Source: a virus (taxonomy: Duplodnaviria; Heunggongvirae; Uroviricota; Caudoviricetes). Taken from it: a DNA stretch of 64,000 nt. Positions within the stretch are counted from its first letter, which is position 1. The number at the start of each line of letters is the position of its first letter. Positions 19,496 to 63,845 of this stretch are shown in pieces. Below the pieces are notes generated by a model. That model had not been told where the DNA came from, searched no databases, and saw only the letters and a program-made list of their open reading frames with translations. The DNA is taken from the IMG/VR virus record IMGVR_UViG_3300050187_000003, positions 11,576 through 75,575 of that record. One strand, given 5' to 3'. Made by a program: the position numbers and the translations under genes.

Positions 19496-20785
19496 TCAGG
19501 CCGCGAGGGTGACGGCGCTCCGGAGCAGCGGCCGCCAGAGCACTTCGGGCGTTTTTATGGCATATCTAGCAGCATCGATGCTGTGGTCGTCTGCCTTGAT
19601 CGGGGCGTCTGAACCGTCCCGGTCGACGGCCTTGTCATCCCAGGCGTAGCCGGGGATCTCTTCGATCAGGCCCTTGCATGACTGGTGCACGCGGAGCTGG
19701 TCGTTGCCGAGCAGGCTCGACATGAGCCGGATCCCGTCGAGGACGGAGTTGTCGGCGGCCGCCGAGGTCATGCCGTCCTCGATCAGCTGGAGCCGCAGCG
19801 ACCGGGCGGACGGGTCGACAACGGTCCACTCCGGGGCCAGGCCGGTGAGCCCGGTCGTGCCGGGCACTTCCAGGGCGCCGAGCCAGCGGCGGAGTTCGCG
19901 GGAGAGGCCGCGGTCGGTGAGCTGGCGGCGGGCGATGGCCGGGTCGTGCCGCCACTCGTGGGTCAGGTAGAGCCGTCCGTCGCGGCCGGCGCCGAGGATG
20001 AGGGCGGCGGTGGCGTTGCGGGTGCCGTAGTCGATGCCGATGCTGATCCAGCGGTGGATTTCCGGCAGGACTGGGATGACGTGGCGGTCTTCGTCCCACA
20101 TGTCGAAGACGGCGCCTTCGGCCTGGACCCAGTTGCCGAGGATGAACCGCTTGTACCACAGGCCGACGTACTCGATCTTGAGGTCGGCGACGTACGCGGG
20201 GTCGAGGTGCGGGTTGTCGTCGAGGGTGCTGTGCCAGGTACGCAGGTTCAGCTCGCCGACGCGTTGCAGGTACTTCTTGCGGAGCCAGTGGGCTGGGCTG
20301 TCGGGGTTGGTGGTGCCGAACAGCTGCGCGCCGGCCACGCTCAGCCGGGCGAGGACCTGGGTGAAGAACGCCTCCGGGATGGTGGTCAGTTCGTCGCCGT
20401 AGGCCAGGCACAGCGTCATGCCCCGGACCTTCGGCTCCGCCTTCGCGTCGTTGGCGCCCAGGACGTCGACCTCGCGGCCGAGGATGGTGCCGGTGGGTGC
20501 GCCCGTATTGTACCTGGTCAGCCTGGCCAGGGGGCCGAACAGGGCCGGGTCGGTGAGCACGGAGAACACGTTTCGGTTGACGGCCTCGCGGGTCTTGCCG
20601 AAGAGCAGGACCCTGCCCGATGTCGGCGCGGCGGCGACGGCGAGCAGGAACCGCAGCAGCGACGCGACCGTCTTGCCGGACCTGACCGAGCCCTGCCAGA
20701 TGTTGAGGCGGGCCGTGGACTCGACCACCGAGCGGAGGTGGATCGGGGACAGCGACCGGGTGACGACGTCGAGGTCAACCGGCAT
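19496..20785 (-). CDS. terminase large subunit
   Basis: Walker A WQGSVRSGKT lies near the N-terminus, with the ATPase and C-terminal nuclease-type regions after it. The likely start MPVDLDVV... is internal to ORF 19496..20869, which would otherwise overlap the small subunit by about 95 nt. Confidence 0.65.
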   Translation of the reverse strand: MPVDLDVVTRSLSPIHLRSVVESTARLNIWQGSVRSGKTVASLLRFLLAVAAAPTSGRVLLFGKTREAVNRNVFSVLTDPALFGPLARLTRYNTGAPTGTILGREVDVLGANDAKAEPKVRGMTLCLAYGDELTTIPEAFFTQVLARLSVAGAQLFGTTNPDSPAHWLRKKYLQRVGELNLRTWHSTLDDNPHLDPAYVADLKIEYVGLWYKRFILGNWVQAEGAVFDMWDEDRHVIPVLPEIHRWISIGIDYGTRNATAALILGAGRDGRLYLTHEWRHDPAIARRQLTDRGLSRELRRWLGALEVPGTTGLTGLAPEWTVVDPSARSLRLQLIEDGMTSAAADNSVLDGIRLMSSLLGNDQLRVHQSCKGLIEEIPGYAWDDKAVDRDGSDAPIKADDHSIDAARYAIKTPEVLWRPLLRSAVTLAA

Positions 20786-21233
20786 CGGACTCGGGCCCGG
20801 TGAGCTGGTCGTAGGCGGCGCCCAGGCCGCGGGCGAGGGCTCCGAGCATGCTCTTCGCGGCGTCAACACCAGGGTCGGCGTCGTGCTTGGTCAGGGCGAG
20901 ATGCTTGTCAATGAAGATGCCGTAGGCTATGGCCCAGCCCTTGGCGTCGTTGCCGTTTTCGGCGGTGAGGATGCTGGAGCGTAGGACGGTTGCGACGCCA
21001 ATCGTGCCGGTTGCCTCAGTTGCCCGGGCGGACCGGTTGTCGGCCTGGACGGCCTCGGTCGCCTTTTTGGTCGTTGATCGGTCAAACGGTGTCGAGATGC
21101 CTGCTTCGGCGGCGATGTTGGTGACGCTGGCCTTGCTGACCCCGTGGTCTCGGGCAATTTGGGCCCGGCTTTTCTGGCCTGCGCGGATGTCGTCTGCGCA
21201 GGCTGCGCGGATGTTGTCGGGGATCCGGGTCAT
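20775..21233 (-). CDS. terminase small subunit (HTH DNA-binding)
   Basis: 152 aa with an N-terminal HTH (KSRAQIARDHGVSKASVTNIAAEAG), immediately upstream of and overlapping the large subunit. Confidence 0.45.
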   Translation of the reverse strand: MTRIPDNIRAACADDIRAGQKSRAQIARDHGVSKASVTNIAAEAGISTPFDRSTTKKATEAVQADNRSARATEATGTIGVATVLRSSILTAENGNDAKGWAIAYGIFIDKHLALTKHDADPGVDAAKSMLGALARGLGAAYDQLTGPESDAG

Positions 21234-21306
21234 GGGTCACCTCCGCCGACCCTTGGCCGGTCTGGCTGTCGGCGGCGCGCCTTGCGCGCTACCGCTGTGC
21301 GTTCGG

Positions 21307-21380
21307 TGGCGGAGGCGTGATTTGAACACGCGGCCTCTGGGTTGTTGACCCAGCGAGCTACCGGGCTGCTCTACTCCGCT
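21307..21380 (-). tRNA. tRNA-like element: canonical D- and T-arms, atypical anticodon loop (TCAACAA, anticodon AAC, C33) and an A1:C72 acceptor mismatch
   Basis: Minus-strand sequence AGCGGAG-TA-GAGC-AGCCCGGTA-GCTC-G-CTGGG-TCAACAA-CCCAG-AGGCC-GCGTG-TTCAAAT-CACGC-CTCCGCC-A folds as a cloverleaf. No encoded CCA. Either a phage tRNA or a pseudo-tRNA/att remnant. Confidence 0.35.
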
Positions 21381-26499: not shown

Positions 26500-26681
26500 G
26501 CCGGCACCTCCCGCCGGGTCTCGTGGTGGGGCGGGCATTCGACCGAATGCCCGCAAGGGTGACCGATCGACAACACCAGGCCGTCACGGGCGGCGATCCG
26601 GGTGCCATCTGCGGAGAGCGTGACTGTCCGGCCTTCGCGGACGAAGAAGTCCGTGGCGAGCCAGTTCCAGCAGACCAACAT
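26496..26681 (-). CDS. small hypothetical protein (about 61 aa)
   Basis: MLVCWNWLATDFFVREGRTVTLSADGTRIAARDG... Its start overlaps the upstream stop and its stop overlaps the next GTG start, so it sits in a chain of translationally coupled genes. Confidence 0.25.
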   Translation of the reverse strand: MLVCWNWLATDFFVREGRTVTLSADGTRIAARDGLVLSIGHPCGHSVECPPHHETRREVPA

Positions 26682-27439
26682 CACGCCACCGCCGACGGCC
26701 GTGGCGACACGAACCGGGCCAACTCGAACTGGGCAACCACCCCGCTCACCTCGCCGCGCCGACCCGCGCGGGCCTTCGCCACAACCAGGTTGTCCCGGTT
26801 CGTAGATGCGAACCGGGACAGCATCACCACGGCGTCGGAAATCTCGGCCATCTGCCGCGACGGCAGATGATGCAGCATCGGGTGGCGCCATGCGTCGCGG
26901 ACCTGAGTGGTGACTACTACTGCGGCGTCCTTACTGTTGGCGATCTTCCGCAGCTCCTCTACGGCTTCGTAGCTGCGGAAGAAGGGGCTGTCCACGGCGA
27001 TGAGCCGGGCAGACGACTCGCGGACGAACCCCATGACGGTGGCTGCCGTCCGCGCCTCAATGACGGCGAGCGGGGCGGCGTTCCACGCAGGCTGCGCGGC
27101 GTGTAGACGCGTCGCCTCGGCCACGTCGGGTGCCGTCGTGTTCGGTACCGGCACCTCGGCCATGCCGGCGAGGATCCGGTTGTCTCGCTGAACGGGGTTG
27201 TACTCGCCGTCGATCAGCAGCGTAGGCACCCCCCGGTTGACGGCGTTGGCGCGGACGATCGTGTCGACCAGGGTGGTCTTTCCGGAGGCTGCGGATCCGG
27301 CGATCAGGTTGACGGTGCCGGGCCGGAAGCCACCGCCGAGGAGCGCGTCGAGCTCGGGCAGGCTGGTGGTGTAGCGATCAGGGGTCATGACAGTTCTCCT
27401 CGGGGCGGGGGTTGATGGGGTGGGGTAGGCGGTCATCAC
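26681..27439 (-). CDS. RecA-like / DnaB-C-terminal-like ATPase (KaiC/RadA superfamily)
   Basis: Walker A LIAGSAASGKTTL and Walker-B-like LLIDGEYNP. Lies directly downstream of DnaB. Confidence 0.45.
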   Translation of the reverse strand: MMTAYPTPSTPAPRRTVMTPDRYTTSLPELDALLGGGFRPGTVNLIAGSAASGKTTLVDTIVRANAVNRGVPTLLIDGEYNPVQRDNRILAGMAEVPVPNTTAPDVAEATRLHAAQPAWNAAPLAVIEARTAATVMGFVRESSARLIAVDSPFFRSYEAVEELRKIANSKDAAVVVTTQVRDAWRHPMLHHLPSRQMAEISDAVVMLSRFASTNRDNLVVAKARAGRRGEVSGVVAQFELARFVSPRPSAVA

Positions 27440-28767
27440 ACGATCGCCATGTCCACGAACCGCGACTTGTCCAGCTGTGCGGCGACTGTGACCTTGCCTT
27501 TGGTCGCCGACCGGGCTTTCAGGACAAAGACGTCGGCTTCGCCCATGCGTGGCGATTCGTGGTCGTAGTAGTCAGGCCGGTACAAGCCCAAGACCACGTT
27601 CGACGCATTGGCGATCGCCCGTGACCCACGCAGGTCACCTAGCTGTGGTTCTTTGTCCGTGCGGGTGTCGGCGTTGCCGTTGGCCTGGGAGGCTGCGATC
27701 ACGGGAACGTCGAGGTTGCCGGCCATGTTTTTCAGCCCTTGGCTGACGTCGCTGATCTGTTCCTGTTCGGTGTTGCCCCGCTTTGACGGCCGCACCAGCT
27801 GGTTGTAGTCGACGATCACCGCGTCCAAGCCGTGCTTGGCCGCTAGGACCCGGCAGTAGCCTTCCATCTGCTTGACGGTGATCTCGGACTGGTCGCACAG
27901 GAACAGCGGCGCTGTCGACATGGGGCCGAGGACGTTCGACATCCGCGACCAGTGGCGTTCGTCGAGGTCGCCGTCGCGAATGAAGCGGTAGGGGACGCCG
28001 GACTCTGCCGACAGGATGCGTTCGAACAACTCGTCGCAGGCCATTTCGAGGCTGAAGTGGGCCACCGTGTACTTTTTCTTGATCGACAGGTGCCGGGAGA
28101 TGTCGGTGAGGAAGAGCGACTTTCCGCCGCCGGTAGGCGCGACAACGGTGATCAGCTGCTTCTTCCGCAGCCCACCCAACATCTTGTCCAGGTCGATGAA
28201 CCCAGTCGGTAGGCCAGCGGGTGTGTCTTTGCGTTGCTCGATCGCGTCCAGGCGGTCGTTGACGAGTTCCCCCAACTGGACCATGACGCCGTTGGTGTTG
28301 CGGACTGGCCGGATCTGCTGGATGAGTTCCTCTGCCAGCGTGTGGGCCTGCTCCGATGTCCACCCTGAGGAGGTGGCGGCGTTGGTGATGCGGATACCGG
28401 CGGCCTGTAGGCGGCGGCGGGTCGCCATCTCCAAGACCCGGTCGACGTAGTAGCCGGCCTGCGCGACGGTCGGTACTGCGGCGACGCATCTGTGCAGGAA
28501 AAGCACGCCTCCGTCGTATGCGCCGAGTAGCCCTTGGTCGGCGAGGAACCCAGCCAGCGCCACTGGTTCGGTGGGAACACCGGATTCGTGCGCGGAGACG
28601 ATGTGCTCAAACAGGGTGCCGTGCCGGGGCTGGTAGAAGTCGATCGACCCGAGTTTGACGGCGACATCGTTGACGAGGCTGCTGTCAAGCATGAGCGTAC
28701 CGAGAATGATGCGTTCGGCGGCGATGTCGAAGGCCGGGGCTGCTTCAACGGTGTCGGTAGCGGTCAT
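27436..28767 (-). CDS. dnaB: replicative DNA helicase DnaB
   Basis: 443 aa. N-terminal DnaB domain, Walker A VVAPTGGGKSLFL, and motifs ...AHFSLEM..., ...VIVDYNQL..., ...IAASQANGNADTR... typical of DnaB. Confidence 0.75.
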   Translation of the reverse strand: MTATDTVEAAPAFDIAAERIILGTLMLDSSLVNDVAVKLGSIDFYQPRHGTLFEHIVSAHESGVPTEPVALAGFLADQGLLGAYDGGVLFLHRCVAAVPTVAQAGYYVDRVLEMATRRRLQAAGIRITNAATSSGWTSEQAHTLAEELIQQIRPVRNTNGVMVQLGELVNDRLDAIEQRKDTPAGLPTGFIDLDKMLGGLRKKQLITVVAPTGGGKSLFLTDISRHLSIKKKYTVAHFSLEMACDELFERILSAESGVPYRFIRDGDLDERHWSRMSNVLGPMSTAPLFLCDQSEITVKQMEGYCRVLAAKHGLDAVIVDYNQLVRPSKRGNTEQEQISDVSQGLKNMAGNLDVPVIAASQANGNADTRTDKEPQLGDLRGSRAIANASNVVLGLYRPDYYDHESPRMGEADVFVLKARSATKGKVTVAAQLDKSRFVDMAIV

Positions 28768-30433: not shown

Positions 30434-30727
30434 ATGACGGTCATCGCAGGGCAACCCCTGCCACGAACTCAGTACGGAAGTCGTTACGATCTGGAGGTGA
30501 CCAGACGCGTAATGATGGGAATCCAGGAGCTGCGACTGCGGCTCAAGGAACGCGTTTCCGCAGTACAGGACGGCATCCACACCGTCTTCACCCGCCACGG
30601 CCGACCCGTTGCCGTGCTCGTCGACATCGACTGGTACCGGCGCGCCGTGGACGCCATCGGCGATGCCCCGCTCGGGTTCGAGAACCCCGAGCCGCTGCCC
30701 GACAGGACATGGAACGACGGCAGCTAG
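30434..30727 (+). CDS. Phd/YefM-family type II antitoxin homolog (orphan; no cognate toxin gene found)
   Basis: Segment IQELRLRLKERVSAVQDGIHTVFTRHGRPVAVLVDIDWYRRAVDAI matches the Phd/YefM fold signature. Start may be at 30434 or at the internal ATGATG near 30512. Plus strand, opposite to the lytic genes. Confidence 0.55.
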   Translation: MTVIAGQPLPRTQYGSRYDLEVTRRVMMGIQELRLRLKERVSAVQDGIHTVFTRHGRPVAVLVDIDWYRRAVDAIGDAPLGFENPEPLPDRTWNDGS

Positions 30728-31543
30728 CCGGTTCACGACGCCACCTGCCCGGTAGTCGGGTTGAGCTCGCCAGGCCGGGCGGCGAGCCGGGTGCGCGGGG
30801 TCTGATCGGAGATAGTCAACGGTGTGCCCCTTTCCGGACGGAGCTACGGGCAGGCTTGAGTGCGGCGAGGATTGCGGCACGGTCGGCCCCCGGTGTGGAA
30901 GCCTCATCGGCCAAACGGTGGGCGCGTTCCCGGACGCGTGTGGGGCTGTCCGCTGTCAACTTCCGGCGGCGTGCCGGCAGCGGGCTAACGACTTGGCGGC
31001 CTCGGCGCAGCATCAGCGGTCCTGTCCGCTGTCGGCTGGCCGCCGTTCGAGTCGGACATCACAGACGAGCCCGGCGCGGGTGTCGGTGTATTCCATCCAG
31101 CCGGGGCCGGACCGAAACTTGCGGTCACGTTCCCGCATCCGGGCCCGAGTCGGGAAAGGTATGGGTGGCCGGTGGCGGGTCGGCGGGACCGTGGTGGACG
31201 ACGCCGATGGTCCACGGCCCGGAAGGAATTGCGCTCATGCCGCAGCCTGGCCGGGGCCGAACTGGTCGAGAATGAGTTGCCGCAGTTGGCTGGCGGACCC
31301 CGGCGTCCCAATGTCGCTATCCGAGTGACACGCGTCGGGTAGTGGCGGTAGGCCGGTGTCTGGCCAGCATGTTCGGCAGCGCGCGCCGTGCGCCAGGTGC
31401 CGGCGGCGAGCGAAGGGGGTGCCGCACGCCAGGACAACGTCAACAGTGAGCATCTGGGTATTCCGTTCTGTCGATGGATGGGTGGGAACGGGGCGGCGCG
31501 GCCCGCCACACGAGCAGACCGCGCCAACCAGCAGGACAGAGGG

Positions 31544-32443
31544 CTACTGTGCTGGCGTCTGCACCGGGTTACCGCCACCCAGGCAGAACCCCGGCTCCCG
31601 GGCATGCTTGTCCGCGAGTTCCAAACAGCGCACCACCGGATCCACATCGGCGTTCGTTTCCGACACCTGCTTCTGAATCTCAGCGTTACGCCGGTCCTGC
31701 TCCAGGTTCTTCGCCGCCAACACCTTCTGCTGGAACGCCTCAATGCTCTGCTGGGTCTTCTCGTCGTAGCGGATGATCCCGATCACCGTCGCCAGCACGT
31801 CAACGTCTCCGCCGATCCGAGCCTCGATGATCGACTGCGCCTTCTCCGCCAGCGGACCGGTCTGCGGTGCCATCACCTGCCCGGTCTCCTCGTTCACGTT
31901 CGCCAACGGGTCGTGGTCGGCGAACGTGTCAAGCAGCGCGTTGACGATGTTCTGGTCGACCCGCGTCCCAACGAAGTTGCCGAAGTCCCGCTTGTACGAC
32001 GCCCACTGCTCCGGTGCCTGAGCCGAGTCGGTCGTCCACTCGACCAGAACGTCCACGCACGCCTTCTGCAGGCCGGCGATCCGCACCCACACGCAGTTGT
32101 TGTCGCCGCGGCGGTCGAACGCCTGCCGTGAGGCGTCCCAGTCGTCGACCTTCTGCCACGGGGCCACCCACTGCAGACCAGGCCCGGTCACCTCACCGGT
32201 GGGCTTGTTCCAGGAGGTGACGATGCCGACGTTGCGGGTCGGCACCGTGTACGCGGATGAGAACAGCAGCAGCACAACGGCTAGGCCGAGTCCGCCGGCG
32301 CCGATGCCCTTGGAGACAGACCGGTTGGAGCCGGTGGTGGTGACGGCTACCGCGAGAGCCAAGGCTCCGGCGACCCCGCAGAGGATGGCGAGGATGAACG
32401 AAACGGGCATCAGGGGTTGACCTTCCGGTAGTTGTTGCGCCAC
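31544..32443 (-). CDS. SPFH/band-7 (stomatin/HflK-like) membrane protein
   Basis: N-terminal TM (FILAILCGVAGALALAVAV), then VPTRNVGIVTSWNKPTGEVTGPGLQWVAPWQKVDDWDASRQ (the SPFH core pattern) and a C-terminal coiled region IEAFQQKVLAAKNLEQDRRNAEIQKQ. Confidence 0.55.
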   Translation of the reverse strand: MAQQLPEGQPLMPVSFILAILCGVAGALALAVAVTTTGSNRSVSKGIGAGGLGLAVVLLLFSSAYTVPTRNVGIVTSWNKPTGEVTGPGLQWVAPWQKVDDWDASRQAFDRRGDNNCVWVRIAGLQKACVDVLVEWTTDSAQAPEQWASYKRDFGNFVGTRVDQNIVNALLDTFADHDPLANVNEETGQVMAPQTGPLAEKAQSIIEARIGGDVDVLATVIGIIRYDEKTQQSIEAFQQKVLAAKNLEQDRRNAEIQKQVSETNADVDPVVRCLELADKHAREPGFCLGGGNPVQTPAQ

Positions 32444-32676
32444 TCGGTGACGCGTTTACGGGTTGGGGTGGTGAGGATGCTGAACTCGCCGGTCAGGTCT
32501 GCTGGCGGCGAGTTCAGGTCGGCGAGAATCTGCTCGGCCTCCCGGCACAACTTGACGCACCGGCGAACCTGCCTGCGGCTGTCGACCCGGCCGGTCGAGC
32601 GGCGGCCAATCACGATGCCGATCGCGTAGCCGACCATGCCGGCGATGCTGATAGCGGCGACGATCGCGAAGCCCAT
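32410..32676 (-). CDS. small membrane protein (N-terminal TM, basic C-terminal tail), co-operonic with the SPFH gene
   Basis: MGFAIVAAISIAGMVGYAIGIVIG... Overlaps the SPFH start by 34 nt, and its start abuts the lipoprotein stop. Confidence 0.4.
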   Translation of the reverse strand: MGFAIVAAISIAGMVGYAIGIVIGRRSTGRVDSRRQVRRCVKLCREAEQILADLNSPPADLTGEFSILTTPTRKRVTEWRNNYRKVNP

Positions 32677-32945
32677 CAGCGTCGAATCCTTGCCGGCTTG
32701 GGGGTGGGCTTGCCGTCCGACCTCGCCACTCCAGCCGCCGTCTTCTTCGGCTGGGCTGTCGGCGTCGGCTTACGGGTAGCTGGCGGTTTGCCGTAGCAGT
32801 CCTCGTCGCCTTCCAACAGGTCGCCGAAGTCGCAGTCCGGCACATCCTCGGCAGGCTGCTGCGGTGTGGCCTTTCCGTCGCAGGCCGCGAGCACCGGGAC
32901 AGCGGCCACGACGCCGGCCATGGCGAGGAAACTTCGGCGGCGCAT
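32676..32945 (-). CDS. Tat-type secreted lipoprotein (89 aa)
   Basis: MRRRSFLAMAGVVAAVPVLAAC: twin-arginine RRxFL motif plus lipobox LAAC. Mature part is Pro/Lys/Thr-rich with a DCDFGDLLEGDEDCYG motif. Confidence 0.5.
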   Translation of the reverse strand: MRRRSFLAMAGVVAAVPVLAACDGKATPQQPAEDVPDCDFGDLLEGDEDCYGKPPATRKPTPTAQPKKTAAGVARSDGKPTPKPARIRR

Positions 32946-33508
32946 CAGAACAACGGCCTGTCGTTGAAGCCGGTGAGCACGTTGTAGATGGCCGCCGTCC
33001 AGCGGCAGTCACCGAGCGCGGTGTGCCGGTCGTATTCGTCCGGGTCTACACCGACCGCACGAGAGATGTCGTCCGACTTCCCGCTCGCCGGCACCGCGCC
33101 GTCTCGGCCGAGTAGCCAGCCTTCCGCCATGTCGATGACGTCCTTGGGCCGGTACCAGCGGGACGGCATGATGCCGTTGACGCGCATCCGTCGGTCCAGG
33201 GTTTCGGTGTCGAACGACGGGTTCGAACCGGCAGCAACCGCACCCCGGAGGTAGCGTTCGGCTTCGGTTAGCGCCTGGAGTTCGCTGACGGCCGAACCCA
33301 TCCCGGTGAATCCGGGGTGCCGCTCGTAGAATCGGCCCACGTTCAGCGCGGTCAGGTCGGCGTTACCGAGGTCGCAGTCCTCGGCGCGGATTATCCACGA
33401 CCGCTCACGTACGCCGCTCTCGTCGCGGCGGATGACGGCGATTTCCCACGGCCGCCGGTCCGGGCCAAGACTCGTCGTCTCACAGTCCAGAAAACACAGA
33501 GGTCTCAC
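32945..33508 (-). CDS. DnaQ-like 3'-5' exonuclease (DEDDh)
   Basis: Exo I FLDCETTSL, Exo II NPSFDTETL and Exo III HTALGDCRWTAAIY motifs. Confidence 0.6.
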   Translation of the reverse strand: MRPLCFLDCETTSLGPDRRPWEIAVIRRDESGVRERSWIIRAEDCDLGNADLTALNVGRFYERHPGFTGMGSAVSELQALTEAERYLRGAVAAGSNPSFDTETLDRRMRVNGIMPSRWYRPKDVIDMAEGWLLGRDGAVPASGKSDDISRAVGVDPDEYDRHTALGDCRWTAAIYNVLTGFNDRPLF

Positions 33509-33517
33509 AACATGCTC

Positions 33518-34369
33518 CTATGCGGCAAGGCCGACATCGCGTCGGCTCAACTGGTTGGCGAGCTCACGAAGCCCGGCGAGGGTCGTCCCCGACAGGCCGT
33601 GCATACGGGCGAACCGGGACGCGCCGCCGCCCCGGCCGCAGTGCCACAACAGCGCAAGCGCCCAGTCCTCACGGGTCGGCAACGCAGACAACGGCAGGTC
33701 CCCTGCCGCTGCCCGTTCGATCGCAACAGGGTCATCGCCGGGTTCCGGCCCATCGCGGCCAGCCAACGACGGTTGCTCGGCCGGGTCGTCAATGTCTTCC
33801 CACGCCAGCGGCGGCGCCCACCCGTACCGTGCCGCCATGTTCACGGCCCGCTTCGACCCGCCAAGCGTCATCGACAAGCGTTCGTACGTGTCGGCGATAG
33901 CCCAGTGGCTGGCTTCGCTGATGGCCGGCGAGGTGGCGTGGGCGAGTTCCCACGCCCACTGAAGATGCCGGTGGCCGCACTGGGTGGCGATGGCAGTCAA
34001 CGTCCAGCCGATGGCGACTAGGGCCTGTACGCGTCGGGTTGCACCGATGGTGGGCACGAGGCCGGCGCGGATGACCGCTGTCGGTTGGACGGCGAGGATC
34101 GCTGCCGCTGTCGACCCGTGGACTACCTTCCTGGGCTGGTAGAGGACGCTGTAGATGGTGTTGTGGGCGAGGTGGGCGTGGCGGGCGATGGCACGCAGGC
34201 TCATGCCGTTTCGCCGAAGGTGATCGATGTGGTCAAGGACTGCTTGGGCTGGCATTTGGGGCTGCCAGGTGCCGGCTTTGATCGCGGCCCTTCTGCGTCG
34301 GTCGTAGGCGGTGGACACTCGTTGGCAGCCGCCGCATCCCGCGACGAACCTGCGGTGGTGGCAACTCAT
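33518..34369 (-). CDS. hypothetical DNA-binding protein with multiple HTH-like segments
   Basis: N-terminal Cys cluster CHHRRFVAGCGGC. HTH-like segments (MSLRAIARHAHLAHNTIYSVL; LSGTTLAGLRELANQL). Between the DnaN and exonuclease genes. Confidence 0.35.
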   Translation of the reverse strand: MSCHHRRFVAGCGGCQRVSTAYDRRRRAAIKAGTWQPQMPAQAVLDHIDHLRRNGMSLRAIARHAHLAHNTIYSVLYQPRKVVHGSTAAAILAVQPTAVIRAGLVPTIGATRRVQALVAIGWTLTAIATQCGHRHLQWAWELAHATSPAISEASHWAIADTYERLSMTLGGSKRAVNMAARYGWAPPLAWEDIDDPAEQPSLAGRDGPEPGDDPVAIERAAAGDLPLSALPTREDWALALLWHCGRGGGASRFARMHGLSGTTLAGLRELANQLSRRDVGLAA

Positions 34370-35520
34370 CGGGTGACCCGGATGGGCCGGATGGGCATGA
34401 TCAGGTAGCGGTAGCTGGTGTCAGGGCTGTCGTCGTCGCCGAGCGGGGCGAGCACTGCCGGTTTGACAGCGTCCACGAACGAGAAGTGCCCCCGCTTCGA
34501 GCCGACCGCGTGGAGGCCGTCGATCAGGTACTGCGGGTTGAAACCGATGGTCAGCGGCTCGCCGGTGAAGGCTGCCTCCATCGCCTCACTGGCCCGGGCA
34601 TCCTCGGTCCCGCCCGCCTCGACAACCAGCCCGTCGGCGCTGAAACTGAGCAGCACCGGCGTAGCGCGTTCGGCGACCAGAGCGACCCGTTTCACCACTT
34701 CGCCCATGTGCGCGACGTCGACGACGGCGGTGGCGTTGACGACGGTCGGGAACAGGCTGCGGACGGGCGGATAGTTGGTGCCGTCCAGCAGTCGGGTGGT
34801 GGTGGTACGAAGGGGTCCGGCGAATCCGGCGACACCGTCCCGGGTGGTTTCGCCGAGTCCGATCCGGACGACCCCGGCGGCTGCCCCGAGGGCTTTGGCG
34901 GCGGCTGCGAGGGTGGACGCTGGCACCAGCGCGGTCAGGTTGATGTTTGCGTCTGTGGGCTGCCATTCGATCTCCCGGACCGCGAGCCGGTACCGGTCGG
35001 TGGCCAGCAGGGACATTTGTCCGGCGGACAGTTCGACGCGGACGCCGGTCATCATCGGCAACGAACCGTCCCGGCCCGCGGCGACCGCGACCTGCGCGAC
35101 GGCGGCGGCGAAGGCCGGCGCGTCGACACCGCCGGCGCTGGCTGGCATGTCCGGCAGCGTCGGGTAGTCCTCCACCGGCATCGTGGGCAGGGTGAATCGT
35201 GCACTGCCACAGACCAGTTCGAGGTGCGCGCCGACCGCTGCGAGGTCGACGGGCTTGGCGGGCAGCGCCTTCGTGATCTCGGCGAGCAGCCGGCCGGACA
35301 CAAGACCATCGAGCCCGTCGTCGTCGGCGCGGGTGACGCCGCCGACGACGACGGTGGTCGACACCTCGTAGTCGAAGCCAGACACCTTCAGGGTGCCGTC
35401 GGAGGTGAGGGTGAGGTGGGCACCGGATAGGACTGGCACCGCCGGCCTGGACGGCAATGCCCTGGCTACCGCGGTGGCCGCGTCGGCAAGTTCCCGGGGG
35501 TCGTTGATACGGACAGTCAT
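34366..35520 (-). CDS. dnaN: DNA polymerase III beta sliding clamp (DnaN)
   Basis: 384 aa. Start MTVRINDPRELADAATAVARALPSRPAVPVLSGAHLTL... has three-domain clamp-like organisation and ends ...YRYLIMPIRPIRVTR. Confidence 0.7.
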   Translation of the reverse strand: MTVRINDPRELADAATAVARALPSRPAVPVLSGAHLTLTSDGTLKVSGFDYEVSTTVVVGGVTRADDDGLDGLVSGRLLAEITKALPAKPVDLAAVGAHLELVCGSARFTLPTMPVEDYPTLPDMPASAGGVDAPAFAAAVAQVAVAAGRDGSLPMMTGVRVELSAGQMSLLATDRYRLAVREIEWQPTDANINLTALVPASTLAAAAKALGAAAGVVRIGLGETTRDGVAGFAGPLRTTTTRLLDGTNYPPVRSLFPTVVNATAVVDVAHMGEVVKRVALVAERATPVLLSFSADGLVVEAGGTEDARASEAMEAAFTGEPLTIGFNPQYLIDGLHAVGSKRGHFSFVDAVKPAVLAPLGDDDSPDTSYRYLIMPIRPIRVTR

Positions 35521-35882
35521 GCGGGCTCTCCCGTGGGGTTTTTGCGGTAGACAAGTCGCAGCGGTCCGGCCTGTTTCAGCAGGTTTTCGCGTTCGCAGGC
35601 GTAGCGGTCGCTGTCGATGAGCACGTTGTTGTCGCCGACATCGACGAGCAACGGGTTGCCGAACCGGTCGACCCACACGTCGCCGTGGATGGGCGGCCAT
35701 TCCGGAGGGGCGACCACGGTTACGGTGACCGATTTTCCGAGGTGTACTTTGATGCCGGTGTCAGGGTCGTCCAGGGTGAGGAGCACCCAGGCGCCGGGTT
35801 GTGAGTCTGCGACCTTGCCCCGGATCGTGACGTCGAGCACGGTGTTCGGCTCGTAGCGGGTCGGCGGGGTGGGCGGACTCAT
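35517..35882 (-). CDS. hypothetical beta-rich protein, paralog of 42015..42317
   Basis: VADSQPGAWVLLTLDDPDTGIKVHLGKSVTVTVVAPPEWPPI is shared with the second copy. RBS GGGAGA upstream. Confidence 0.45.
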   Translation of the reverse strand: MSPPTPPTRYEPNTVLDVTIRGKVADSQPGAWVLLTLDDPDTGIKVHLGKSVTVTVVAPPEWPPIHGDVWVDRFGNPLLVDVGDNNVLIDSDRYACERENLLKQAGPLRLVYRKNPTGEPA

Positions 35883-44527: not shown

Positions 44528-45624
44528 GACGCCACCTGCGTCTTCTTGGCTTCTTCCATCGCGCCCAGGAACCGGCGCATGTCATCCGCCGACGCCTCAT
44601 CCGACGACCTGCCCACCAGTTGGCAGAAGCTCCGCTCCAACTCGGCCTTGTCATCCCACGGCGACTCCGCCAGGATCTGCCCCCACAGGCTGTCCAACTC
44701 GTCGACCACCACCGCGTCCACCGGGGCGACCGGACCAGGCGAGGACGAAGCAGGTTGGGCTGCTCGGATCGCCGCCGCCTTCTGCTCGAACATCACCCGC
44801 AGATCCGCCGGGATCTCCCCACCGTGCGAACCCTTCACCTGCTCGGCCAGCCCATACAGGGCGTTCAAGTTCTTCGCCGCATCGATCAGCGACGGGTAGT
44901 CCACTGCGGCGGCGATCGCCGTCCGGACCTCACCCGCCACCGCCGCGCTATTCCGGGCCGCGATCAGGTCCTGCACCCGGCCGGACATCAACTGCTTCGG
45001 CGTCAACGCATCCACATGCAGCGTCGGCACCGCGAAGTTGAACGTCTTCGCCTCACCGTTGACCTGCCGGGTTACCGTCCGCTGATCCAGCACGAGCCGG
45101 GCCGGGATCGCCCCTTGCGCCATCGCCAACAACTGGGCAACACCAGGCAGCTCGACGGCCGCGTAGTAGGAGCCGGTGTCGACCCGCCACGCGCCCAAGC
45201 CGGGAACGTCTTCCAGCATCACCCGCAGCCGGGTGTGCATCTTGCAGTCCCGCGCCTCCGGGTCACACAGGCACGCCGACTTCGTGATCTTCTCATGCTG
45301 GCCATCGCAGCGCCGCAGACAGCCGCCCTTCGACCACATCTCGTACCACTGGTTGTCGGACGGGTCCTGCGGCGGCACCACCACCGGCACCTCGCTGGTG
45401 TTGGTGATGACCTGCCACTGGCCGGCACCCTTCGGCGGCTGCCACGGCTGGACGGAGCCGCCGTACAACTCGGCGATCCGCTCGATCAGCGCCTTCCGGG
45501 GCGAGGTGAACCGGAGCCGGTCCAACTTGCCCGGCCGGGTCTTGCCGCTCGCCGTCTGAACGAGGACACCGAGCCGGATACGGCCGACCTCGGTCTGCTG
45601 CTGTTGGAGCTGAATGATCGGCAT
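44524..45624 (-). CDS. hypothetical protein, candidate recombination partner (SSAP-like by synteny) of the adjacent exonuclease
   Basis: 366 aa. N-terminal beta-rich region with a Cys cluster (GGCLRRCDGQHEKITKSACLCDPEARDCKMH). Directly downstream of the Cas4-like exonuclease, with start/stop overlap. Function is inferred from position only. Confidence 0.35.
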   Translation of the reverse strand: MPIIQLQQQQTEVGRIRLGVLVQTASGKTRPGKLDRLRFTSPRKALIERIAELYGGSVQPWQPPKGAGQWQVITNTSEVPVVVPPQDPSDNQWYEMWSKGGCLRRCDGQHEKITKSACLCDPEARDCKMHTRLRVMLEDVPGLGAWRVDTGSYYAAVELPGVAQLLAMAQGAIPARLVLDQRTVTRQVNGEAKTFNFAVPTLHVDALTPKQLMSGRVQDLIAARNSAAVAGEVRTAIAAAVDYPSLIDAAKNLNALYGLAEQVKGSHGGEIPADLRVMFEQKAAAIRAAQPASSSPGPVAPVDAVVVDELDSLWGQILAESPWDDKAELERSFCQLVGRSSDEASADDMRRFLGAMEEAKKTQVAS

Positions 45625-46499
45625 CAGGATTCCTTCGGGAGGTTCACGGGACGGGACAGGACAGTCCCGAGAGGAGAGGTCAGGCCCTCAACGACACGAA
45701 GCATGTGGACAAACTTGGCGTGGTTCTCCGGGGTCAGATGCACCTCACGCATCTGCACCTTGTCCGGCCGGACGTGCAGAATCAGGCCGGCCTGCACCGG
45801 CGGCATCGGCAACTCCGACCCGTCCGGCAGCAACACTGCGTCGGCGCCCGCGTAGGCGTTGACCTGCCAGCCCTCCGAGTGGGCGAGGTGCTTGCCGGAC
45901 TTGATGTCGTCCACCACCGCCAGCCCGGCGAGGTGCTTCAGCTTCGGCGGCAGCGGCGAGTCGTCGGGGAACCGCAGGATGCCGTCGAGCGTGCCGGCGT
46001 ACCCCCACTTACGGGAGATCACCGTCATCTCGGCTGCCTCGAACTGCGGCCGGTACAGGCGACGCCACCGCCGGTACCGGGCAACGTAGGGGGCGATGTC
46101 GTCATCGACGTGGAAGCCTTCGCCGAACAGTTCCATCTGCTCGGCGGCGTCGTGGATACGGCGGCCACGGTCACCGGCGTCGTCACGAACCTGGTTGTGC
46201 TGGTTCGCCAGCCAGTACACGGCGCAGTCGGGGCACTGCCCGCAGGCGTTGTCGGTGCGGGTGGCGTTGCACGGCAGGTTACGGGAGCAGCGGTTCAGCC
46301 ACGGCAACCGATCGACGGCGGCCTGGGCAGCGAGTCGCGCGGACCAGTCGGGTAGCCCGAACTTGGCGATGTAGCCGAGGACGGTGGTGACGGAGATGAA
46401 CCGTTCGCCGGTGACGGGGTGGATGTAGTAGCGGGAGCCGGTGTGCGGGTCGGTTTCGGCGTTGGCCGGACCGGCGGGTTTCTCGGCGGTGACTGTCAT
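45624..46499 (-). CDS. PD-(D/E)XK exonuclease, Cas4/RecB-like with 4-Cys cluster
   Basis: ...CSRNLPCNATRTDNACGQCPDC... plus PDDEXK-like core (...VVDDIKSGK...). Internal start MTVTAEKPAGPAN... Confidence 0.5.
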   Translation of the reverse strand: MTVTAEKPAGPANAETDPHTGSRYYIHPVTGERFISVTTVLGYIAKFGLPDWSARLAAQAAVDRLPWLNRCSRNLPCNATRTDNACGQCPDCAVYWLANQHNQVRDDAGDRGRRIHDAAEQMELFGEGFHVDDDIAPYVARYRRWRRLYRPQFEAAEMTVISRKWGYAGTLDGILRFPDDSPLPPKLKHLAGLAVVDDIKSGKHLAHSEGWQVNAYAGADAVLLPDGSELPMPPVQAGLILHVRPDKVQMREVHLTPENHAKFVHMLRVVEGLTSPLGTVLSRPVNLPKES

Positions 46500-46657
46500 C
46501 GGCTTCCCGCCTGCCTTTCGTTGCTGTTGTCGCTGGGCTTCTTGCTGTGGCAGTCGCATGCGTTCAGGTCGCGGGCGCAGCCGACGCACACCTGCTTGTG
46601 GCCGTTGCGGATGCGGGCCGCATTCACAAGTTGCGGGTAGTCGCCGATGTCGGTCAC
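46496..46657 (-). CDS. possible small Cys-rich ORF (53 aa)
   Basis: GTG start. VTDIGDYPQLVNAARIRNGHKQVCVGCARDLNACDCHSKK... The stop overlaps the exonuclease ATG. Confidence 0.2.
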   Translation of the reverse strand: MTDIGDYPQLVNAARIRNGHKQVCVGCARDLNACDCHSKKPSDNSNERQAGSR

Positions 46658-46949
46658 CGGGCACCGCCCGTCTTCGCCCGCACGTGCGCCTCACCAGCCG
46701 CCTGGGCGTGTCCGGCAGACAGCAGGCCGGCGCGGCGGGCACGCCGGACAGCGATCCGCCAACGCGGGTGGCCTTCCGACACCCACACCCGGTAGTCGGC
46801 CACGAAGTCGGCGTCGGACCTGGTCAACCTGGGGTGGTCGATGTGGATGCCGTGTGCCCGTGCCCGCTCGTAGCAGGCGGTGCACCGCAGGCGTGCCCGA
46901 TGCCGGCGGTCAGGGTGACAGGCCGGACGGCGGCGGCTCAGGACCGCGC

Positions 46950-51054: not shown

Positions 51055-51276
51055 CTAAAAGGGACCCCGGGCCGGGTCCGGGCGACGCCGAAACCTCACG
51101 GGAGTCGGCAAAGAAACCGGGGCCGCCGGATCGGCGACCGTGCCCGTGGCGGCGTACCGCCACACATCAAGGCAGCCGACACGACCATCGACATGAACCC
51201 AGCCGTCAGAAGCACGAGTCGCCGACCGTCCACAATGGCGACATACGTCGATCACCGGCCGCATCAGGCAGCCCAC
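51055..51276 (-). CDS. possible small zinc-ribbon protein
   Basis: CRHCG...C motif. Weak. Confidence 0.2.
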   Translation of the reverse strand: MGCLMRPVIDVCRHCGRSATRASDGWVHVDGRVGCLDVWRYAATGTVADPAAPVSLPTPVRFRRRPDPARGPF

Positions 51277-52208
51277 CCATCCAGCAGAGACAACTGCCCG
51301 ATCTCGCCAAGCCCCCGGGACAACGACGACGCCTGCGTGGACAACGCCTGCTCACGCCACGTCAACGCCCAACGGAAACAGTTCCGACAGTCCGTCTCCC
51401 GGCGCAGCCCTGTCACCGGGTGCGGCCTTGACAGATGCCGGCAGCCCGGACGCATCACCTGCTCATCGCGGGCAACCTTCGACCAGGCTTGGCTGTCCGC
51501 GGTGGACAGCAGATGCCCGGCAACCCGCAGCGCGTTGATAGACACGCCGAAACCGTGCAGTCGCATTCCCAAACCGAGTTCGGCGATGGTGCCCAACACA
51601 CGGGCCACCCCCGTCTGCGAACCACGCCGGCACACCGACCCGACGCCGACCCGCAATCCGGCCAGGTCGACCCCGTTCTGCCGGTACATGTCGACGTGGG
51701 CGACGTACTCCCACGGATGCCAGCCCTGCAAGGTGGGCAGCCAGTTGATGAACGGAAACTCCTCGGCCAGATAGCAGTAGTTCTCGACCGTCAACTCCTG
51801 GTGCTCCCGAACCGTTTTCCCGGTGCGGGCGAGGACCTGCGGCTCACACGGCCAGTCCTGGATGCCAACAAAGTCGGGCATCAACTCCCGCGAGCTGTGG
51901 CCGACCGCCTCGGTGAAGTCGACCCACATCGACCCGTAGTCGTCGGGCCACCGCCTCCACGGGTGATCCCGCCGGCCGTTGCTCAGCATGAGAGCGGCGT
52001 ACGAGTCGCCAGCCCACGGGGTGCCGAACGTCTGCACGGGCCAGTCGTCGCCCTGCCCCTCGTAGACGCTCCTGTATTTAGCCAGGGTGGTGGCGGAGAT
52101 GAACAGCGGCACGGGGGAGTCGCGCAGGTGATGCGGATGCCCGACGCCCAGGTAGAAGCCGAACCGGCACGGACGTCCCGGCTGGGCAGGCGAACACTCC
52201 CTGCTCAT
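51264..52208 (-). CDS. tRNA-guanine transglycosylase (TGT)-superfamily protein, DpdA-like candidate
   Basis: FGFYLGVGHP...PLFISATTL...LHGFGV... plus a C-terminal Cys/His cluster (PGCRH...DCRNC) resembling the TGT zinc site. Confidence 0.4.
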   Translation of the reverse strand: MSRECSPAQPGRPCRFGFYLGVGHPHHLRDSPVPLFISATTLAKYRSVYEGQGDDWPVQTFGTPWAGDSYAALMLSNGRRDHPWRRWPDDYGSMWVDFTEAVGHSSRELMPDFVGIQDWPCEPQVLARTGKTVREHQELTVENYCYLAEEFPFINWLPTLQGWHPWEYVAHVDMYRQNGVDLAGLRVGVGSVCRRGSQTGVARVLGTIAELGLGMRLHGFGVSINALRVAGHLLSTADSQAWSKVARDEQVMRPGCRHLSRPHPVTGLRRETDCRNCFRWALTWREQALSTQASSLSRGLGEIGQLSLLDGWAA

Positions 52209-52474
52209 GTCGGCATCCCGAATGTTCCGGCAAGGCAGAACACCGCTAGCCCGAACACCAGTAGTCCCACGACGAGCAGCGCCGTAGCCCGGACCCGGAC
52301 CCACGTCGACTTCACGTTCACGTCAGACGGCCGACGGGGCAGGCGAATCATGAGCCCGCCTTCGCGGGGGTCTCCGAGGCTGCGCAGTCGGCGTGCGCCA
52401 GCCCGAGCAACTGGCCGGTCAACCAGACAGACGGCTGCCCGAACAGCAGTGGCACCCCGCAGCCTCGTTTGCAC
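52205..52474 (-). CDS. small membrane protein
   Basis: C-terminal ATALLVVGLLVFGLAVFCLAG. Confidence 0.25.
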   Translation of the reverse strand: MQTRLRGATAVRAAVCLVDRPVARAGARRLRSLGDPREGGLMIRLPRRPSDVNVKSTWVRVRATALLVVGLLVFGLAVFCLAGTFGMPT

Positions 52475-56595: not shown

Positions 56596-56808
56596 CTAAC
56601 CAGACGGCCGGGACGACAACTCCCCATCCACCGCCCGCAGCAGCGCCAACGTCAACTGGCCGGCCTGGGCCGGCGACGCCGCACCCTTCGGACCCGGCGT
56701 GTCGAACGTACCGGCAGCGAGGTGGGCGGCAACCAGGTCTAAGCCGGCCAGCAGATTGGCCCGCACCTCCTTCAACGCCGCCACCGGCACATGCCCCAAC
56801 CCGGTCAC
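56596..56808 (-). CDS. small protein (70 aa) translationally coupled to the upstream nucleotidyltransferase
   Basis: Its start overlaps the NTase stop. Sequence is helical. Confidence 0.3.
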   Translation of the reverse strand: MTGLGHVPVAALKEVRANLLAGLDLVAAHLAAGTFDTPGPKGAASPAQAGQLTLALLRAVDGELSSRPSG

Positions 56809-57485
56809 GCCGCGTCCAGGTAGGCGACACGCACCCGGCGCAGAAAGTCCACCACCCGCGCCCGATCCGGTACAGCCGGCAACACACTCGCCGTCGCCCC
56901 GAACAGCGCGTCCTCCCGCTCGTACACCGCCAGCATCTGCTCCGACGACATGTCGTCGAACGCGAAGTAGTCGTCGGGGTCGCCGACATGGACTGTCAGG
57001 ACACCGGTCGACAGCAGTTCACGGCCCGACCGCAGCAGCCGAAGAATGTGCCTCGCATGCTTCGTCGTCCGCTTCCGGGTATCAGCGCTGAACGAGCCGT
57101 CACTGCGGCCCGCCAACCGGGCGGCCTGCTGCCGGGCGTACCCGCCGTACGCCGACTTCACCACCTGTTCGGAGAGGAACGCCGACCGCATCCCGACCAA
57201 CTCGGCGCCGAACCGGGGGTCGACGGTTTCCAGCAGCGCCGGGGGTAGGTGCAGCAGTTCGGTGATCGTCGGGTTGCACTTCAAGGCGAGCCGCAGGTAC
57301 TTGCCGACCTCGTGCAATGTCGAGTCCGGCTTGGTGGTGACGAGGGTTTCGCGGGTGCCGTGCCAGTCCAGGCCGGCGACCTCGACGGTGGGGGCGACGA
57401 AGACCCCCAACCTGTCGACGTCGGAACCTTCCCGGGTCAGCCCGTAGGCGGTCGACCCGACGACGCCCTCCAACAGCACGCGCAT
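56805..57485 (-). CDS. nucleotidyltransferase (Pol-beta superfamily, minimal NTase fold at N-terminus)
   Basis: GSTAYGLTREGSDVDRLGVFV matches the GS...DxD NTase signature. A helical domain of about 130 aa follows. Confidence 0.5.
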   Translation of the reverse strand: MRVLLEGVVGSTAYGLTREGSDVDRLGVFVAPTVEVAGLDWHGTRETLVTTKPDSTLHEVGKYLRLALKCNPTITELLHLPPALLETVDPRFGAELVGMRSAFLSEQVVKSAYGGYARQQAARLAGRSDGSFSADTRKRTTKHARHILRLLRSGRELLSTGVLTVHVGDPDDYFAFDDMSSEQMLAVYEREDALFGATASVLPAVPDRARVVDFLRRVRVAYLDAA

Positions 57486-63128: not shown

Positions 63129-63845
63129 TCATGTCGGGTCGATGGGTTCGCCGGTGATCGCTTCGACCACGGCGGCCACCAGGTCGCGGGCGACCGGTGG
63201 GGTGACGGCGTTGCCGAGCATCCGGACCTTGTCCCGAATCGAGGTGCCGAGTAGCACGTAGCCGGGCCGGAACGCCATCCCACCGCGGATCTCGTCGACG
63301 GTGAGCATCCGGAACGTGCAGTCCTGCACCGGCACGCGGGTGCCGATCAGGGCGTCACCGGCTACCGAGGTCTGTGCCGGAAGCGGGTCGGTCAGTGCCC
63401 ATTCGCCGAGGTGCTCCCACTTGAGCACGTCGGTGACGTTCTCCACGACCACCGCCCGATATCGATGGACCTCGGTGAACCTCGGGACGTCCTGCATCAG
63501 CATCCGTGACCGGATCGCGGCCTCATCCGGCAACGGCTCATCGTCGTCGGTGAACATGTCGAGCTGCACCGGTTTGCCGTCGTAGTCGACCTTCCGGCCC
63601 TTGGCCACCGACCAGTTGGTGCACTCCGGGGAGAACCAGGCGATGTCCGTGCGCGGGTGCCGGGCCGGGTCGATGCGCTGGATGTCCTCCCGGTCGTGGT
63701 CGGTGTCCGGGAAGTTCGCCTGATGCGTGTCAATCGCGAGCTGCCAGTGGTTCGACGCCATCACCACCCGCACCCCGGGCACCTGGTGCATGCCCGTCGA
63801 CGACCCGCCGGCGCCGCAGAAGTAGTCCGCCACGGTCAACGTCAT
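63129..63845 (-). CDS. DNA (cytosine-5)-methyltransferase-like protein (compact)
   Basis: Motif I DYFCGAGG, ENV (VVVENV) and motif X-like MLGNAVTPP. The PC catalytic motif is non-canonical (SPECTNW). Confidence 0.5.
   Translation of the reverse strand: MTLTVADYFCGAGGSSTGMHQVPGVRVVMASNHWQLAIDTHQANFPDTDHDREDIQRIDPARHPRTDIAWFSPECTNWSVAKGRKVDYDGKPVQLDMFTDDDEPLPDEAAIRSRMLMQDVPRFTEVHRYRAVVVENVTDVLKWEHLGEWALTDPLPAQTSVAGDALIGTRVPVQDCTFRMLTVDEIRGGMAFRPGYVLLGTSIRDKVRMLGNAVTPPVARDLVAAVVEAITGEPIDPT

Follow-up and report, generated by a model that had tools for sequence, protein, structure and literature searches.

Why a bacteriophage should carry, among the genes that replicate its DNA, an SPFH protein coupled to two other small membrane proteins is the question raised by a block of minus-strand genes at positions 31544-33508 of a 64,000-nucleotide stretch of viral DNA (IMG/VR record IMGVR_UViG_3300050187_000003, positions 11,576 to 75,575; Caudoviricetes). 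This stretch, hereafter the window, belongs to a phage that infects bacteria of the Micromonospora type. As membrane organizers SPFH proteins are universal; their cage architecture has been solved only recently, and among the viral copies, which range from actinophages to giant viruses, we know of none with a known role. An earlier note on this DNA, made from its letters alone, had read the block as a four-gene module of exonuclease, lipoprotein, transmembrane protein and SPFH protein that was not standard in phages and matched no described system. The analysis presented here reveals a smaller unit, in which the transmembrane protein and the SPFH protein form the core, a lipoprotein is frequently added and the exonuclease is a variable neighbour. 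As far as we have found, the partnership of the SPFH protein with a family other than NfeD, the lipid-anchored variants of the pair and the host paralogue are undescribed; no paper describing this gene composition was found in the literature, and on that point the earlier note still stands.

The coupled genes and their products

Four minus-strand open reading frames (ORFs) were confirmed within the block, encoding in the direction of transcription the exonuclease, the lipoprotein, the transmembrane protein and the SPFH protein, and the GC content at third codon positions, 0.81-0.89 where scored, is of the coding type. The tight coupling that had been noticed at the outset takes the form of three identical one-base cTGATG junctions, TTCTGATGCGC, CGCTGATGGGC and CCCTGATGCCC (minus strand), at each of which the A of the TGA stop is also the A of the next ATG.

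The last gene of the operon (31544-32410, minus strand) encodes an SPFH (band-7-like) membrane protein. Its start is likely ATG 32410, yielding 288 amino acids, rather than GTG 32443 and the 299 residues originally assigned, because the database gene call P0001 is 288 residues long and 100% identical to the window protein, and because all homologues begin with MPxxF; the revised start also yields the one-base overlap with the transmembrane gene. The protein comprises two N-terminal hydrophobic helices (residues 3-24 and 28-52), an SPFH alpha/beta domain and a long C-terminal helix. It matches PHROG 200 over residues 10-266 (E 6.6e-34). The Pfam family Band_7 (PF01145) did not match the window protein itself at E <= 0.1, nor did the NCBIfam scan return Band_7. 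The Pfam model does match 28 of 35 aligned homologues (40-81% identical; best E 6.4e-14), many database homologues carry PF01145, and relatives are named 'SPFH domain-containing protein' or 'stomatin' in the source databases. An AlphaFold2 model (mean predicted local distance difference test score, pLDDT, 86.4) was compared with the PDB by Foldseek, and the top 50 matches all have the SPFH fold, led by HflK/C (7vhq, 7.6e-12) and including erlin, prohibitin, stomatin, flotillin, QmcA-YbbJ and vault. A profile of the 35 homologues retrieved no SPFH chain, and no HflK/C, from the PDB sequences, such that the relationship to proteins of known structure is visible by fold comparison only and not by sequence profile. 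Taken as a divergent SPFH protein on profile and model evidence, the product thus retains the identity first given to it, and none of the profile searches showed it to be anything else.

Two pairs of cysteines are conserved in this protein. The pair C262/C276 is kept in 32 of 32 sequences, down to the distant copies of Mycobacterium, Gordonia and Streptomyces phages; C106/C118, the second pair, is kept in the Micromonosporaceae type. Conserved cysteine pairs are typical of exported actinobacterial proteins. There is no charge before the first hydrophobic helix, and of 38 family members 21 have a net positive loop between the two helices, a distribution that weakly favours a loop inside the cell and an SPFH domain outside it.

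Immediately upstream, its stop overlapping the SPFH start by 1 nt, lies the gene (32410-32676, minus strand) for an 88-residue bitopic protein, hereafter the partner. As first described, it has a single transmembrane helix, hydrophobic and N-terminal, which is followed by an Arg-rich stretch and a basic two-helix tail. The partner matched nothing in Pfam, NCBIfam, PHROG or PADLOC, and its AlphaFold2 model (20 sequences, pLDDT 71), which consists of a transmembrane helix at residues 2-27 and helices at 33-55 and 70-86 with no strands, had no Foldseek match in the PDB. NfeD, a membrane protein whose C-terminal domain is an OB-fold, is the classical companion of SPFH proteins. The window partner is not an NfeD protein: the model is all-helical, no OB-fold signal was detected, and neither an NfeD profile nor an NfeD structure in the PDB was matched. 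A single-sequence word search with the partner returned itself alone and relatives surfaced by profile; among 1.84 billion representative sequences, a profile search identified 170 partner clusters (at 50% identity), 78 of them at E <= 1e-10 and almost all of 80-110 residues (about 80-97 in the related loci). Thus, the partner represents a real, if unnamed, family. No homologue was found in sequenced phages by tblastn.

The next gene upstream (32676-32945, minus strand) encodes an 89-residue lipoprotein, which matches PHROG 35987 (E 1.3e-9). Its N-terminus, MRRRSFLA...VLAAC, contains an RRxFL motif, a hydrophobic stretch and the lipobox LAAC, and is followed by an acidic DCDxxD...DC motif, a KPP motif and a basic tail rich in Pro, Thr and Lys. 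Within the family the lipobox Cys, DCDxxD...DC, KPP and a basic tail that ends in Arg are invariant, and the window protein is shortened, lacking a segment of about 19 residues (GR.VNGKFV.WSWV) that other members possess. The earlier designation as a twin-arginine translocation (Tat) lipoprotein holds as regards the lipobox and the RRxFL motif. It does not hold for Tat export as a trait of the family, as a clear RRxFL is present in only two of five members. On the window protein the Tat hidden Markov models (HMMs) score just short of their cut-offs (TAT_signal, 17.1 against 22.7; TIGR01409, 15.0 against 16.7). A tblastn search of sequenced phages with the lipoprotein returned a chance-level match only.

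The first gene of the block (32945-33508, minus strand), which begins at a GTG (33508) preceded by AGGAG, encodes a DnaQ-like DEDDh 3'-5' exonuclease of 187 residues. Its identity, as originally proposed, is supported by intact Exo I (DxE; D8/E10), Exo II (NxxxFD; D100) and Exo III (Hx4D; H162/D167) motifs, and by matches to Pfam RNase_T (25.7 bits; cut-off 24), PADLOC DEDDh (5.9e-9) and PHROG 192, 'DNA polymerase exonuclease subunit' (E 1.9e-23); a phmmer search of the PDB found nothing.

The unit in related phages and its paralogue in the host

The extent to which these genes travel together was assessed on contigs with close SPFH homologues and on fetched viral and genome loci, which were searched with an HMM of each component; the counts that follow refer to the 11 phage-type loci with a visible upstream region. 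(A pattern scan of IMG/VR yielded only three loci.) The partner family is present in eight of these loci (the window, L002, L004, L007 and L095-L098), and in seven of the eight the partner stop and the SPFH ATG have one base in common (CTGATG or CTAATG), with partner proteins that share only 20-40% identity. In the reverse test, which started from the partner, the gene was directly upstream of a PHROG-200-type gene in seven of seven other contigs examined (P0122-P0125, P0130, P0132 and P0138); a further locus, L104, has the same arrangement by position only, its downstream protein not itself having been scanned. Chance does not account for the arrangement, since the two genes are coupled in seven other, independent loci as well. 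The lipoprotein family is found in five of the 11 loci (the window, L002, L095, L097 and L098), where it adjoins the pair.

The exonuclease behaves differently. It is present in only three of the 11 loci, in a different position each time: the gene order is exonuclease-lipoprotein-partner-SPFH in the window, lipoprotein-exonuclease-partner-SPFH in a Plantactinospora prophage (L002), and exonuclease-93-residue protein-partner-SPFH in L096. In the Mycobacterium abscessus prophage prophiGD13-2 (L009, 3351-4758) a DnaQ-like gene of the same family lies directly after the band-7-like gene, so that the adjacency has recurred independently. This variability indicates that the exonuclease is a neighbour in the replication operon and not a component of the unit; its obligate membership was rejected, eight of the 11 loci being without it, and with it the four-gene composition that the earlier note had proposed.

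In three loci (L102, 4001-5247; L103, 4001-5364; L104, 3342-4720) a 4-nt overlap couples the partner family to proteins of 322-362 residues that have a lipoprotein signal (LAAC, VTAC and IGAC) in place of the usual membrane anchor. The two of these proteins that were scanned, from L102 and L103, match PHROG 200 weakly (3.7e-8 and 1.8e-4, respectively). Being anchored through a lipobox, the variants must be exported. This information, with the conserved cysteine pairs, the uncharged N-terminus and the loop charges described above, suggests that the SPFH domain of the window protein is probably outward-facing, as in HflK/C, and on the same side of the membrane as the lipoprotein; the tail of the partner, in which an Arg/Lys run follows the transmembrane helix, would lie in the cytoplasm. 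A gene for a TROVE (Ro60-like) protein is close to the variant locus in both L103 and L104.

The SPFH gene itself, far from being foreign to phages, is an ordinary, if unexplained, feature of actinophages, and the view that it is non-standard has to be abandoned. A tblastn search with the window protein identified homologues in 304 sequenced phages (E down to 1e-24), comprising 257 of Mycobacterium, 26 of Streptomyces, 15 of Gordonia, five of Rhodococcus and one of Mycolicibacterium, most of them annotated 'band-7-like membrane protein'. The carriers include Mycobacterium myoviruses of about 155 kb, Gordonia and Streptomyces phages of about 115-130 kb and M. abscessus prophages. The models in BFVD extend the SPFH fold to phages of Rhizobium and Vibrio and to many giant viruses, and the best viral structural match is the Band-7-like protein of Streptomyces phage StarPlatinum (TM-score 0.72). 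SPFH ORFs were reported in T4-like phages in 2006 (PMC1524935), a myovirus of the 155-kb type has been described as predicted lytic (PMC11783175), and overexpression of LeBron gp49, a Band-7-like protein that carries a transmembrane domain, has a mild toxic effect (PMC13148394). Why a phage should have an SPFH gene 'remains unclear', according to a paper of 2026 (PMC13239085).

The actinophage band-7-like proteins of PHROG 200, among them LeBron gp49, Turret gp27 and prophiGD13-2 gp12, are homologous to the window protein and share with it the two N-terminal hydrophobic helices, the SPFH domain, the C-terminal cysteine pair and a setting among early or replication genes. They differ in that identity is only 26-34%, the C106/C118 pair belongs to the window type, and the gene stands without a transmembrane partner or lipoprotein, as it does in the sequenced Mycobacterium, Gordonia and Streptomyces phages.

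A second set of relatives is chromosomal. When one genome per species was scanned, 137 loci were obtained; the best 80 were analysed, and 78 of these (L017-L094) are chromosomal SPFH copies, mostly from named Micromonospora species, with 44-51% identity to the window protein. The gene adjoins dnaE or an aminotransferase gene in 44 of them, and further conserved neighbours link the remaining 34 to this group. The chromosomal copies have the architecture of the window protein and all four conserved cysteines. They differ from it in standing alone: the Micromonospora gene is monocistronic, and an HMM search of the 78 copies detected neither partner nor lipoprotein at their loci. In a neighbour-joining tree they form a tight clade, monophyletic in 196 of 200 bootstraps and with very short branches. 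The phage copies were monophyletic in none of the 200, because one viral contig, L012, alone groups with the chromosomal clade. The chromosomal gene may have been domesticated from a phage, or the phage copies may have come from it.

The operon within the window

Nearly all genes of the window are on the minus strand, and the DNA is that of a phage or a prophage. Upstream of the membrane genes are a homologue of the DNA polymerase III beta-clamp (34366-35700, minus strand), in which each of the three Pfam beta-clamp domains is recognized (E 5e-28 to 9e-21), and a helix-turn-helix (HTH) protein of 283 residues (33518-34369, minus strand; PHROG 1590, E 1.6e-47). An ATGA overlap joins these two genes, and only 9 nt, with the AGGAG inside them, separate the HTH stop from the GTG of the exonuclease. 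The longest clamp ORF has a 60-residue Arg-rich N-terminal extension and its Pfam match begins at residue 70; the true start is probably an internal ATG near 35520 (MTVRINDPREL). In several related phages the place that the clamp and HTH genes occupy in the window is taken by a gene for a conserved protein of about 210-230 residues without family assignment (beginning 'M..IPT.E.TGLL.DV..FA'; L004 4342-5019, L015 4749-5642, L095 3548-4234, L097 3744-4376 and L098 3721-4377), which precedes the membrane genes.

Beyond the SPFH stop, beginning 18 nt past it, is a GC-rich 14-bp hairpin without a U-tract (31494-31526, minus strand), a candidate terminator that would mark, on weak evidence, the end of the operon. 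A statistically supported terminator at this position was rejected, the hairpin not being called by a consensus terminator scan and its z being -1.5. Just downstream of the operon is an orphan Phd/YefM-like antitoxin ORF (30434-30727, plus strand; 28 bits, below the cut-off of 29.8); no toxin partner is evident beside it, and small opposite-strand ORFs are present at the same position in L002, L004 and L096-L098.

Further along are a full DnaB helicase (27436-28767, minus strand) and, in tandem after it, a 252-residue DnaB_C/KaiC-like ATPase (26681-27439, minus strand), a pair that is likewise present in L004. A single tRNA-Val gene (anticodon AAC; 21305-21380, minus strand) separates the early region from the terminase gene (19496-20869), which is at the low-coordinate end with the portal, head-morphogenesis and major head genes. 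Further up than the clamp are another exonuclease (45624-46742), a homologue of DpdA (51264-52304, minus strand; E 1.1e-42), an enzyme of 7-deazapurine DNA modification that is also encoded in L095, an RlaP-family nucleotidyltransferase (56805-57485, minus strand) and a fragment of a C5 cytosine methylase (63129-63845, minus strand). The DpdA, RlaP-family and methylase genes suggest that the phage modifies its own DNA. A megablast comparison of the 20 kb around the locus with phages returned a single match of 43 bp.

What the membrane module may do

The explanation we favour, to which we give a little better than an even chance, is that the SPFH membrane module is transcribed with the replication genes and serves to fence a patch of membrane during lytic growth. 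The SPFH and partner proteins would be made in a fixed ratio, because of the stop-start overlap, and the module would be expressed alongside the replication genes as lytic development proceeds. If the SPFH assemblies of known structure are a guide, the phage protein would oligomerize into a ring or cage and so fence off a patch of the host cytoplasmic membrane, probably on its outer face as HflK/C does. The lipoprotein would be on the same side as the SPFH protein, with the basic helical tail of the partner projecting into the cytoplasm, and the most likely effect would be that a host membrane protein, or a patch of membrane, is enclosed or shielded while the phage replicates. Candidate targets are a protease of the FtsH type and the route by which other phages inject their DNA. 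The DnaQ-like exonuclease would be a replication gene that shares the operon and is outside the membrane device. What the analysis establishes is the identity of the genes, the SPFH fold, the coupling, the conservation of pair and trio and a partner other than NfeD; the cage, its topology, the time of its expression and its target are what we infer. As regards timing, the SPFH trio runs on the strand of the clamp, HTH and exonuclease genes and is chained to them, DnaB and other replication genes follow, and the hairpin comes after the SPFH gene; the homologues in Mycobacterium myoviruses of a predicted-lytic type and in the Gordonia and Streptomyces phages point the same way, and prophages carry homologues too.

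This setting also bears on the readings with which the locus was originally presented, which turned on prophage defence or the lysogeny decision. Both are disfavoured by the chaining to early replication genes, by homologues in large myoviruses that are predicted to be lytic and by the failure of PADLOC to recognize the membrane proteins: at E <= 1, PADLOC-DB contained no match for the lipoprotein, the transmembrane protein or the SPFH protein, and the exonuclease matched generic DEDDh models only. SPFH homologues occur in phages with and without lysogeny. The module as a prophage moron or a known defence system was rejected on the PADLOC result and the homologues in predicted-lytic phages.

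Several observations weigh against a dedicated outer-face module. The partner is not needed by every member of the SPFH family, as the sequenced phages that lack it demonstrate. The loop between the two hydrophobic helices is neutral in eight of the 38 family members and negative in nine. The link of the lipid-anchored variants to SPFH is weak, both by profile (L102 matched Band_7 at E 0.021, and a joint profile matched prohibitin at E 0.02) and in hhalign comparisons of the SPFH family with the variants (E 0.39 and 0.1). The RNA fold of 31470-31550, at -32.8 kcal/mol, stands at a z of only -1.5 against shuffles and a promoter scan of the operon found none, and it is for these reasons that the limits of the operon are inferred from gene packing. 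Finally, the literature on phage SPFH proteins yielded no functional study, only annotation or a role called unclear.

Comparison with cellular systems is informative in both directions. HflK/HflC-FtsH of Escherichia coli (7vhq, 7wi3 and 9cz2), the best structural match, likewise combines an SPFH domain on a membrane anchor with a long helix after it, and it has an extracytoplasmic orientation that the window protein probably shares. It differs in being built from two SPFH proteins, whereas the window has one gene with no second SPFH gene seen nearby, and the window protein has two hydrophobic helices instead of one, a shorter coiled coil and no match at the level of sequence. In the SPFH-NfeD operons (QmcA-YbbJ, 8z5g; YqiJK; YuaF-FloT) an SPFH gene is, as here, co-transcribed with the gene for a small membrane protein, and by analogy this co-transcription suggests a scaffold with its client or adaptor. 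The window partner differs from NfeD in having one transmembrane helix and an all-helical tail without an NfeD/OB-fold, and in that its soluble part and the SPFH domain are predicted to lie on opposite sides of the membrane.

It could be argued that the function of the trio is superinfection exclusion, the envelope being altered early in infection, or in lysogens, such that the DNA of a second phage cannot enter. Early-expressed exclusion proteins are well known in lytic phages, the precedents including T4 Imm and Sp, T5 Llp and the TP-J34 lipoprotein Ltp, which are, like the products described here, small phage-made membrane proteins or lipoproteins that act at the envelope. The components would be located in the envelope, the exported lipoprotein among them, early expression is likely and the SPFH domain probably faces outward; indeed exclusion is compatible with a membrane-fencing module, of which it would be one specific target. 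It should be emphasized, however, that no relation in sequence or fold to the named precedents was found, none of which has an SPFH scaffold, and that the three membrane proteins show no homology to a known exclusion or defence protein, PADLOC being null for them at E <= 1. In addition, the module is not moron-like, a moron having its own promoter and opposite orientation, and phages of very different kinds, infecting hosts with different envelopes, retain the SPFH gene. Exclusion as the specific role is thus, in our judgement, unlikely.

Less probable still is a gate on FtsH, in which the phage protein would control the protease in the manner of HflK/C and thereby determine whether a CII-like regulator is stabilized or degraded, and hence the choice between lysis and lysogeny. 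The HflK/C-FtsH complexes are among the top structural matches and an outward topology of the HflK/C kind is plausible. Such a gate, however, would have to work with a single SPFH gene and no HflK/HflC pair, homologues are present in large predicted-lytic phages that have no lysogeny decision to make, no repressor or integrase was seen nearby in the window, and the profile-to-PDB sequence search gave no HflK/C match.

We regard with equal doubt the proposal that all four genes form a membrane tether, the basic tail of the partner recruiting the exonuclease or the replisome to the SPFH patch in the manner of phi29 p16.7. The module does lie inside the replication operon, the tail is rich in Arg and Lys, and the exonuclease gene is coupled or adjacent in the window, L002 and L096, with a DnaQ-like gene also following the band-7 gene in prophiGD13-2. 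The exonuclease, however, is absent from most related loci and varies in position elsewhere, its adjacency may reflect merely a shared early operon, and no DNA-binding fold was detected in the partner by AlphaFold2 modelling and Foldseek. That the genes have no joint function and are unrelated small early genes packed together by genome compaction we consider most improbable of all for, although phage genes commonly overlap and the SPFH gene stands alone in many sequenced phages and in Micromonospora chromosomes, the partner-SPFH overlap is kept between partners of such low identity, every contig examined places the partner immediately before a PHROG-200-type gene (with the reservation already made for L104) and the lipoprotein family recurs beside the pair.

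The locus thereby offers a defined three-gene unit in which a viral SPFH role can be tested, and it supplies a dedicated non-NfeD partner family of about 170 clusters, scaffold variants anchored by lipid or by transmembrane helix, and a host paralogue. At its boldest, and here we are distinctly tentative, the trio would be a new, virus-built SPFH cage on the outer face of the membrane, used early in infection to lock out competing phages or to capture a host membrane machine, and the Micromonospora chromosomal SPFH gene would be its domesticated copy. If phage exclusion or the capture of a host protease or channel is indeed what the module achieves, a function would be provided for a gene that is annotated in hundreds of actinophage genomes, including those of M. 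abscessus prophages relevant to phage therapy.

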